6,487 nucleotides of DNA from a virus (lineage: Duplodnaviria > Heunggongvirae > Uroviricota > Caudoviricetes), in IMG/VR virus record IMGVR_UViG_2917886563_000003. One strand, 5' to 3'. A program made the position numbers and the translations under genes. Positions within the stretch are counted from its first letter, which is position 1. Each line of letters opens with the position of its first letter. This document shows positions 2,235 to 3,974 of the stretch, one piece after another. The notes beneath the pieces are model-generated. The model made no database searches, had not been told where the DNA came from, and worked only from the letters and a program-made list of their open reading frames with translations.

Positions 2235-3506
2235 CTATAGCGTTGTTTTACGCCTTAAATTTGATTTTTTATTGATTGATAAGCCTTTCTCTATTTCAGG
2301 GTAGCGTAAAAGCTCAATATATTTTTTAAGCTCTACTGGAGAAGCTGCATTCTTGCTATATGTGCGGAATGTTTCTGTATTGCCGCGCTGATGGCCCAAA
2401 ATTAAGGCTATGCGGTCCTCTGGAATTTGATTTCGATCAAGAAGCTGTGCTACTCCGTGTCTCAGAGAATGAAACACTTTCCTTTCTGTTCCCTTTTCCC
2501 CTAAAGCCTTTCGTTTAGCTCTTGTAAATCGTTGTGTATGCCACGTAGAGCGTTTACCGTCAGCACGCTCTGTAATGCTGGCGTGATAGAACAAAAAGCC
2601 ATTGTGAGGCTTTTCACGAAGAGATAACACCAATGGAGTGATAAGGCTATGCACAGGCACAAGACGTGCCGCAGCTTTCGTTTTTCCCTGTGTGATTTCA
2701 AAACACAGCACACCTTCGATCTCTTTCACATCGTCTATTGTGAGACTTGCTATCTCGTTGATCCGCATCCCTGTATACATTCCGATCAGTGTTATATTTT
2801 GCATTTCTTCTTCATCAGCCAGCATTGAGAACACTTTTGCGAGTTCATCATTGCTAAAGGCTTCATAATTCACCTTGCTACTTTTAGCTTCAAGGCCGTG
2901 ACCTCGCCAAGGATTATCTTGTGGTGCATCGTGATAGCGGTTACGAGCAAGATCCCAGATCTGGGCTAATGCACTGATGTAGTTTTGTATTGTTTGTGGT
3001 GCTTTCTCATTTTTTAGGTCATCTAACCAGCTAGTAACAATAGTTCGGTTAACGTCACGAAGCTGAACATCGCGTTTATTCAGATGTTCTAAGAGCACTT
3101 CTACAGCCTTGTTTGTCTTTGATAGCGTGGTGAGTTTGCGCTTCTCGCTGAACTGGAGAATGTATTGATCACGCATCCTCAAGAGGGAAGGGCAACCAAT
3201 AGAAGAATCATTAAATGATTCAGATACTTGAAATACATATGTTCCAGCTTTCCGTAGTTCTGTAATAATTTGCTCGATCTTCGATGTTTTCTCACGTTGA
3301 GGCTTTAGCTTGTTACGTAGTTTTATCCATTCCAGCGCCACCGCATCACGGAACAACCGTGCTTCTCGAATATCTCTTGTACCCGTGCTCTTAACGTAGC
3401 TGCATCGCCCACCAAATAGATGACGCATATACTTAGGTATAGCGATCCTTACCAGATAGTTTCCGCAAGAATCTGAAATTAAATAGCGATCTCTCTTGAA
3501 ACTCAT
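2235..3506 (-). CDS. int: Site-specific tyrosine recombinase / phage-type integrase (423 aa)
   Basis: Minus-strand ORF with ATG at 3506-3504. The C-terminal catalytic domain has the tyrosine-recombinase signature: box I Arg (TGMRINEIASL), Lys in GKTKAAARLVPVH, box II HSLRHGVAQ, then LGHQRGNTETFRTYSKN carrying the nucleophile Tyr. The N-terminal region resembles an arm/core-binding SAM-like domain of P4-type integrases. Confidence 0.93.
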   Translation of the reverse strand: MSFKRDRYLISDSCGNYLVRIAIPKYMRHLFGGRCSYVKSTGTRDIREARLFRDAVALEWIKLRNKLKPQREKTSKIEQIITELRKAGTYVFQVSESFNDSSIGCPSLLRMRDQYILQFSEKRKLTTLSKTNKAVEVLLEHLNKRDVQLRDVNRTIVTSWLDDLKNEKAPQTIQNYISALAQIWDLARNRYHDAPQDNPWRGHGLEAKSSKVNYEAFSNDELAKVFSMLADEEEMQNITLIGMYTGMRINEIASLTIDDVKEIEGVLCFEITQGKTKAAARLVPVHSLITPLVLSLREKPHNGFLFYHASITERADGKRSTWHTQRFTRAKRKALGEKGTERKVFHSLRHGVAQLLDRNQIPEDRIALILGHQRGNTETFRTYSKNAASPVELKKYIELLRYPEIEKGLSINKKSNLRRKTTL

Positions 3507-3545
3507 ACAAACCCCGGCTATTTTGTCAGGGCTTTTGCACTTGAT

Positions 3546-3573
3546 AGTGTACAGTGTGAAGTGTCGATGTGTT
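3546..3573. repeat. Four tandem heptamers (AGTGTAC AGTGTGA AGTGTCG ATGTGTT) in the int upstream region
   Basis: Read directly from the sequence: three perfect AGTGT cores at 7-bp periodicity plus a degenerate fourth, 40-67 bp upstream of the int start codon and about 70 bp from the tRNA-like core. Confidence 0.5.
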
Positions 3574-3642
3574 GTTAGTTTTGCTTTTGATTCAAAGCAT
3601 TACAGGAGCTTGCTAGGCAAGCGAACGACCGTAGAAATACGT

Positions 3643-3669
3643 GCCGGTTCGAGTCCGGCCTTCGCACCA
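3643..3669 (+). other. tRNA 3'-end-like fragment (T-arm + acceptor 3' strand + CCA); putative att core or island junction, not a complete tRNA gene
   Basis: GCCGG-TTCGAGT-CCGGC forms a canonical T-stem/T-loop (GGTTCGAGTCC), followed by CTTCGCA-CCA. No complementary 5' acceptor strand, D-arm or anticodon arm can be folded from the ~90 nt upstream, so only the 3' part of a tRNA is present. It lies 137 bp upstream of int, on the opposite strand. Confidence 0.5.
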
Positions 3670-3682
3670 AAAGTATGTAAAT

Positions 3683-3707
3683 AGACCTCAACTGAGGTCT
3701 TTTTTTT
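3683..3707 (+). terminator. Rho-independent terminator immediately downstream of the tRNA-like 3' end
   Basis: Stem AGACCTC (3683-3689) / GAGGTCT (3694-3700) with loop AACT, followed by a run of seven T (3701-3707). Confidence 0.7.
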
Positions 3708-3974
3708 ATGCCTGAAATTCACGCCACACAAATCTTTTCCGCTGTTTTTTTCCAACTAACGTCAACCTGGTTCAATCCATATTAAATCCCTTAAGAATAC
3801 CGAACCAAGTATGTTTGCGCTTATCTATTAAGGATTCGGCTCTTTCAGAAAATCTAATCCATCCTCCAGGCACAATATTTATTGCGATCGTGCTCGCATC
3901 GTGGACAATGTTTAATCATAAGTAATATTTACATCAATGAAATCAATGATTTCTATTATGTCACGGAATGGAAA

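Follow-up and report, generated by a model that had tools for sequence, protein, structure and literature searches.

Three AGTGT heptamers stand upstream of an integrase gene at the Escherichia coli leuX locus. They belong to the arm of attR nearest the integrase (the P arm of attP), at the right junction of a satellite-like element of ~12.5 kb that is inserted in the leuX tRNA gene. Our preferred reading, held tentatively and at somewhat less than an even chance, is that the array is not a functional unit and that a core box within it, kept in relatives, is a putative protein-binding site in a pseudo-tRNA att arm. The array would not be a unit because heptamer 1 is lineage-specific and heptamers 3 and 4 are the leader and 5' end of a pseudo-leuX. 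The repeat itself is real and modestly non-random, but short, and for this integrase family, which has been little studied, the heptamer tract is nothing out of the ordinary in an att arm. The window (the whole stretch of 6,487 nucleotides that was analysed) contains the following features.

2235-3506, minus strand: tyrosine integrase gene int, 423 aa (open reading frame; Pfam; PHROG integrase; E. coli genome annotation as site-specific integrase).
3496-3524, plus strand: predicted sigma-70-like promoter, TTGAAA-17-TATTTT, directed outward into the arm (promoter scan).
3512-3531, minus strand: hairpin of the int 5' leader (CCCCGG...CAGGG) enclosing the Shine-Dalgarno sequence GGGG (minus-strand fold; kept in all groups).
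3529-3547, strandless: outer inverted repeat GGGCTTTTGCACTTGATAG, with its partner TTATCAAGTACAAAAGCCA at the far end of the attL arm (L007 13484-13502, minus strand).
3546-3552, plus strand: heptamer 1, AGTGTAC, lineage-specific (unconserved alignment columns).
3555-3566, plus strand: conserved core box TGTGAAGTGTCG in heptamers 2-3, a candidate arm-type or accessory protein site (invariant columns in six leuX-type groups).
3560-3598, plus strand: decayed 5' pseudo-leuX, with leader and acceptor/D-arm relic (AGT, then GTCGATGTGTTG...), including heptamers 3-4 (local alignment; register of the arm alignment).
3583-3598, plus strand: anticodon-arm relic GCTTTTGATTCAAAGC, part of the pseudo-leuX.
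3590-3602, plus strand: IHF-like site ATTCAAAGCATTA, one mismatch from WATCAANNNNTTR (consensus match; top Gibbs motif).
3608-3622, strandless: perfect palindrome GCTTGCTAGGCAAGC, within a unique insert of ~30 nt that separates the anticodon-arm relic from the identity block (hairpin in folds; kept in types A, B, C and C').
3628-3669, plus strand: attR core, the 3' 42 nt of leuX (variable arm, T arm, acceptor, CCA) with a 1-nt deletion of G, CTTCG-CACCA (identity to leuX).
3683-3708, plus strand: intrinsic terminator of leuX, host DNA to the right of the element (terminator scan; same sequence after attR in other E. coli genomes).

The window represents the E. coli leuX locus. The element ends at int and attR, and the yjhR helicase gene lies beyond the leuX terminator. 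E. coli Dog168 carries the same integrase and spacer at the right end of a ~12.5-kb insertion that has an intact leuX as its left end. Products of the Dog168 element include capsid-like, tape-measure-like, Dit-like and replication-initiator-like proteins and a DNA invertase. All element genes except int are on the plus strand. Stretches of ~1-1.7 kb without open reading frames were seen in the ~12.5-kb element (L007 1000-13700; L138 10467-23500), and terminase and portal genes are absent from it. The integrase comprises an N-terminal DUF6538 region, a SAM-like domain and a catalytic domain; its Pfam matches were PF00589 (1.2e-16) and PF20172 (DUF6538, 27.2 bits at a cut-off of 27).

Positions 3546-3573 of the plus strand were read directly in the window as AGTGTAC AGTGTGA AGTGTCG ATGTGTT. 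AGTGT starts at 3546, 3553 and 3560, with a spacing of exactly 7 bp (heptamer 1, 3546-3552; heptamer 2, 3553-3559; heptamer 3, 3560-3566). The three perfect cores at this spacing that were reported in a preliminary description of the sequence were thus borne out, as was their place between the int start (ATG at 3506, minus strand) and an att-like core (the leuX 3' end, 3628-3669). The degenerate fourth copy of that description held in part. Unit 4 (ATGTGTT, 3567-3573) does contain GTGT, but one base out of register, at +1, which gives a spacing of 8 bp; in register it matches AGTGT at 1 of 5 positions.

The chance of such a repeat was estimated by dinucleotide-preserving shuffling. AGTGT was the sole 5-mer of the whole window with three copies at one fixed period between 6 and 12. 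A repeat of any such kind (period 6-12) appeared in 5.1% of whole-window shuffles, and a period-7 repeat in 0.8%. When the 121-nt spacer between int and the core was shuffled instead, 0.2% of shuffles gave such a repeat. Put to the chance test that had been proposed for it, the repeat is therefore rare, but only modestly so (5% window-wide, 0.2% in spacer shuffles). Allowing up to one mismatch, AGTGTNNAGTGT had 2 matches against 0.28 expected. Tandem Repeats Finder, run at a minimum score of 30, did not call the heptamer tract. With neither a repeat-finder call nor a counterpart of the array in homologous arms, the tract is not classed as a tandem array or as iterons.

Copies 95-100% identical over 3380-3627 were found in 21 E. 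coli genomes, and a metagenome contig (L057) encodes an integrase of 98% identity. The heptamer tract was identical in the copies that were read directly (L001, L002, L057). The triple repeat occurred only in near-identical copies (98-100% overall), which are for that reason uninformative on selection. Distant relatives were drawn from E. coli genomes and plasmids, one genome per species, viral contigs and metagenomes; the thrW-type genome KL53 was left out, being rearranged by IS elements, and the viral contigs had no attL within 10-kb flanks. The layout was the same throughout. Most relatives adjoin a leuX fragment, and one large group adjoins a thrW fragment.

The int ATG and the T arm of the tRNA lay 136-139 nt apart in six diverged leuX-type groups, and the arms aligned near-gaplessly. 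Columns invariant in all six groups were the RBS hairpin, GGGCTTTT (3529-3536), GTG (3554-3556), TG (3562-3563), G (3566) and TTCAA...TTA (3590-3601); between the outer repeat and the anticodon relic they concentrate in 3554-3566. Alignment columns vary over heptamer 1 and over most of heptamer 4, and relatives read TTTGATA, TTTGAAT, AGTTTCC, AATTGCT or AACAGTC at the position of heptamer 1. Type B reads TTTGATA AGTGTGA AATGTCG AAGTCTT across the tract, TGTGAAATGTGC is all that type D keeps, and types C and C' keep only TGTGTAGATTGTCG. The three-unit array is restricted to the lineage of the window. The comparison with orthologs that had been suggested thus gave a divided answer: at or below ~84% identity of arm DNA the array of three to four units was absent, but heptamers 2-3 were kept as one box, TGTGAA(A/G)TGT(C/G)G (3555-3566), the only part to survive. 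The N-terminal 75 aa of Int are 61-80% identical among the leuX groups.

Several further observations were made on elements with related integrases. Identical cargo proteins (e.g. WP_000999103.1) were found at thrW following an integrase of 65% identity; the int/att module has therefore been exchanged. At leuX, one C-type relative (L024 31475-39127; L005) has an Eco29kI-type restriction-modification pair and Kiwa kwaAB in place of virion genes. Defence islands, too, are mobilised by the DUF6538 integrase family. Several large E. coli plasmids carry a B-type int, an attR arm with leuX fragment and terminator, a second integrase gene and an adjoining IS91 transposase (L003, NZ_CP010234.1 60839-67086, and plasmid matches H2-H7); a piece of the chromosomal leuX hotspot has been transferred to plasmids. 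Directly inside attL, a region of ~150-250 nt is conserved in elements with differing cargo (L007 13230-13505, minus strand; L023 28845-29110; L024 31020-31290; L022 27420-27690). Long-range pairing was predicted in it between TTTGGTATG and CGTATACCAAA and between GCCACTGTG and CACAGTGGC, with compensatory changes in 11 pairs. The region had no Rfam match and could be either a novel non-coding RNA or a structured site in the DNA.

The arm between int and the core is itself derived from the target gene. A global MAFFT alignment of leuX with the arms misplaced leuX due to the insert, and pairwise local alignments were relied on instead. Local alignment of the arms to leuX 1-44 gave p<=0.001 for types C' and E, 0.002 for types B and C, and 0.013 for type A. 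The C' arm (CGAAGTGGCGAAAT-TGTA- - -GCTGTTGATTTAA) matches leuX 3-37 with a score of 38 against a null of 13.8 +/- 2.6. Carried through the gapless arm alignment, the C' register equates leuX G1 with G3563 of the window. The leader and start of leuX read ...CTTCAGT followed by GCCGAAGTGGC; heptamer 3 (AGTGTCG) matches leuX AGT/GCCG, the slash marking the start of the gene, at 6 of 7 positions, and heptamer 4 (ATGTGTT) matches AAGTGGC at 4 of 7. Alignment of the thrW-group arm to thrW in the same way gave p=0.003. The integrase-proximal arm is thus a decayed pseudo-leuX, visible by sequence alignment only, and on these alignments part of the 7-8-bp periodicity is inherited from the AGTG...AAGTG of the tRNA gene itself. 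ARAGORN and Rfam (RF00005) found no tRNA in the window or in the attR regions of relatives, and Rfam at permissive thresholds returned only a chance miRNA match over the whole window.

The pseudo-leuX arm (3563-3627) corresponds to the decayed 5' two-thirds of leuX, broken by the ~30-nt insert. In thrW-type relatives a thrW relic was seen in the arm, with a 34-nt insert replacing the T loop. The left part of the arm was also compared by eye with the sequence upstream of leuX, and homology to the leuX promoter region was rejected. On the core side, identity of group D to leuX extends only from GTGCCGG onward. We infer that the likely crossover region is the T-arm sequence GCCGG-TTCGAGT-CCGGC (3643-3659). 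The G missing from the acceptor strand at 3664/3665 was also missing from 13 of 72 attR fragments, in at least three integrase groups, and from 0 of 4 intact leuX genes examined. Other A-type copies lack the 1-nt deletion of the window.

The core box lies at a constant distance from the int ATG and from the att core in related elements, and the heptamers have the location of arm-type sites, in the att arm and outside the core identity block. Its type B homologue ATGTCGAA is an exact 8-mer with a single attR copy, where heptamer 3 lies in the window, and two attL copies; two of the three copies are outside the tRNA relic. Of 20000 shuffles, 35 had any 8-mer three times (p≈0.002). The A-type attL carries TATGTGAAAAAT where the B-type attL has its second copy of ATGTCGAA. 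Between attR and attL the type A arms share only the 6-mer TGTGAA, and no AGTGT array was found in the A-type attL arm. After masking of the IHF-like sites, Gibbs sampling returned a secondary motif, AGTGTCGAT in type A, AATGTCGAA in the B-type attR and CATGTCGAA in the B-type attL, with an information content of 8.68 against a null maximum of 8.15, a marginal excess over shuffled controls. TGTGAARTGT was not enriched in the element and its flanks (6 matches against 6.3 expected). A CRP site (TGTGA-N6-TCACA) was rejected by inspection, the TCACA half-site being absent.

From its sequence context, the core box is a plausible candidate for the binding site of a recombination protein. Its most natural and most likely assignment would be an arm-type site for the N-terminal domain of Int, because the position of the box is fixed, the arm length is constant, related boxes occur in the other arm and the Int N-termini are 61-80% identical; a directionality factor would be the alternative. 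The shared N-terminus makes a common arm specificity possible. Judged by lambda P'1-P'3, a spacing of 7 bp leaves too little room for separate arm-domain footprints. Conservation of columns 3562-3566 could reflect mere descent from the 5' end of the tRNA gene.

Across the aligned arms, the strongest conservation lies outside the heptamers, in the IHF-like sites, the outer inverted repeat, the RBS hairpin and the outward promoter. An unbiased Gibbs search of eight attR and four attL arms gave CAANNNNTTA as the best motif, which is the IHF consensus, with one site per arm in the same orientation. CAA and TT of this site are invariant in 13 diverged arms. IHF-consensus sites were seen on either side of the core in every group examined, in the same orientation and ~45-57 bp from the T loop; the attL site is at L007 13548-13559 (minus strand). 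The heptamers themselves were rejected as an IHF site, with no match to WATCAANNNNTTR within 3546-3573. The outer repeat of type A matches the reverse complement of the attL arm at 17 of 19 positions, and outer inverted pairs were present in all five groups with both ends recovered (A, B, C, D and the thrW-type F), the variable half differing by group. In the thrW group the leader hairpin shows a compensatory change (CTCCG/CGGAG). Its loop contains the -10 of the outward promoter. Viewed on the plus strand the hairpin is terminator-like and is followed by CTTTTG. The hairpin may regulate translation of int.

The outward promoter, as predicted, overlaps codons 2-4 of int as well as the 5' leader of the gene. 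The predicted start is near 3531, so the heptamers would lie in the transcript. TTGNNN-17/18-TANNNT was present in 20 of 21 distinct int-start contexts, with -10 variants TATGTT, TAAAGT, TAGTTT, TAAATT and TATTAT. The RNA of 3531-3710 folded with z=-3.2. In this fold GUGUGAAG (3554-3561) pairs with the acceptor strand CUUCGCAC (3660-3667), beside anticodon-like, variable-arm and T-arm hairpins. A promoter scan of the minus strand over 3350-3950 found no sigma-70-like promoter for int and none overlapping the heptamers, although int may have a promoter that is weak or depends on an activator.

Four other explanations of the tract were weighed against the core-box reading. The array may be a neutral tract, a decayed leuX 5' end that already read AGTG...AGTG and gained two upstream TG-rich heptamers by substitution, with the box conserved by common descent; we regard this as possible but rather unlikely. 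It agrees with the absence of the array from relatives, with the alignment of heptamers 3-4 to the leuX leader and 5' end, with the ~5% window-wide chance frequency and absent TRF call, and with cross-group motif scores that scarcely exceed the null; moreover overall identity is 98-100% among the A-type copies with the array, which therefore give no signal of selection. It accounts poorly for an arm length constant within 3 nt despite highly diverged arm sequences, for invariant columns concentrated in the core box, and for the B-type triple of ATGTCGAA over both arms (p≈0.002), two copies of which lie beyond the tRNA relic. The strong version of the preliminary proposal, in which the three to four heptamers are iterated sites for Int, an Xis-like protein or a host factor and form an operator or directionality element specific to type A, is very unlikely. 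The exact 7-bp phasing, which is locally rare (0.2% of spacer shuffles), and the position in an att arm adjoining int speak for it, but the array is not conserved in orthologous arms, unit 4 is out of register, the A-type attL arm has no AGTGT array, the heptamers do not fit the IHF consensus, and tRNA descent accounts for heptamers 3-4. The original idea of a regulatory or directionality element in an att arm is supported in part. Its anatomy stands; the array as the element does not, being absent from relatives and in heptamers 3-4 a matter of tRNA descent. That the repeats are promoter or operator DNA of int, with the minus-strand TTCACA of the box as its -35, is hardly credible: TTCACA agrees with TTGACA at 5 of 6 positions, is kept in types A, B, D and F and lies 34-48 nt upstream of the ATG, yet no group has an acceptable -10 at 16-18 nt (CAAAAG, AAAAGC, CTTTAG), and the minus-strand scan of 3350-3950 was empty.

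A function at the RNA level is unlikely. In this reading a plus-strand RNA starting at the outward promoter (3496-3524) would have the heptamers as its 5' leader. At attR it may pass the pseudo-tRNA and then the real leuX 3' end before stopping at the leuX terminator; in the excised circle it may cross attP into the element, and it may be antisense to the int leader. The promoter form is kept in 20 of 21 contexts with a -10 that varies yet is always TAnnnT, the fold of 3531-3710 (z=-3.2) pairs GUGUGAAG with the acceptor strand CUUCGCAC, and the remaining genes of the element are all on the plus strand. Set against this, promoter and transcript are predicted only, the conserved Lys4 codon of Int puts its own constraint on the TTG of the -35, the acceptor-like pairing needs the 1-nt deletion of the window, which other A-type copies lack, neither ARAGORN nor Rfam recognises a tRNA, and the heptamer sequence is not conserved. 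An extended form of this proposal, which we consider quite improbable, takes the arm as a decayed full-length tRNA-Leu gene in which the outward promoter still works. The heptamers would then lead a chimeric tRNA-like transcript made only at attR, and in the excised circle the same promoter would read through attP into the plus-strand genes and the conserved structured region on the attL side. The TGT(C)GAA boxes are similar to the start of the target tRNA and would at the same time serve as arm sites of the integrase. If this were true, transcription would report whether the element is integrated or excised.

Under the core-box reading that we prefer, the box would be bound by a recombination protein during assembly of the recombination complex, with the N-terminal domain of Int as the likeliest partner. 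It would act jointly with the IHF-like bend site (3590-3602) and the outer inverted repeat (3529-3547). The box is upstream of the int start and just past the outward promoter, and its occupancy would probably alter transcription across the arm, as in KplE1 intS.

The closest general model is the attP of the lambda family (P1, P2, P'1-P'3, H1, H2, H'). Likenesses are short repeated boxes in the arms beyond the core, a fixed arm length, IHF-consensus sites that separate boxes from core in each arm, and an extra N-terminal domain in the integrase, in the manner of heterobivalent integrases. Unlike in lambda, the boxes here are 7 bp apart rather than ~10-11, only one or two are conserved per arm, they are candidate sites from sequence, the N-terminal domain is DUF6538 rather than a characterised Arm-DNA-binding family, and the arm is also a decayed tRNA copy. 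At the KplE1 (CPS-53) intS/attL locus the int promoter overlaps arm-type sites of IntS and sites of TorI, and int is repressed by both Int and the directionality factor; experiments there located the promoter, the start of transcription and the binding sites (PMC2951348). There, as here, int adjoins a tRNA-derived att junction and its upstream region is an att arm, so that recombination proteins bound in it would regulate int. The present locus differs in that no int promoter is predicted, int lies beside the displaced 3' fragment of the tRNA (attR, divergent) and not beside an intact tRNA, and an extra outward promoter covers the int start. With other tRNA-integrating elements such as P4 at leuX, the element shares its leuX target and a mode of insertion in which the element brings the 3' end of the tRNA, so that the gene is restored at attL and the 3' fragment is left at attR. 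Its integrase is not P4-like (no DUF4102), and unlike a P4-type attP the arm keeps the decayed 5' two-thirds of the tRNA, split by the ~30-nt insert. A literature search on leuX arm-type sites and on DUF6538 returned nothing specific.

The repeat itself changes little, since it is the expected kind of att-arm motif and its regularity is mostly lineage-specific or inherited from the tRNA gene. The more useful outcome is the map of the arm, with its pseudo-tRNA origin, IHF-like sites, outer inverted repeat and conserved outward promoter. The DUF6538 integrase family inserts small islands, satellite-like or defence-carrying, at leuX and thrW in enterobacteria. If the core box is an arm-type site, it would be an entry point for dissecting the att site of this uncharacterised integrase family.
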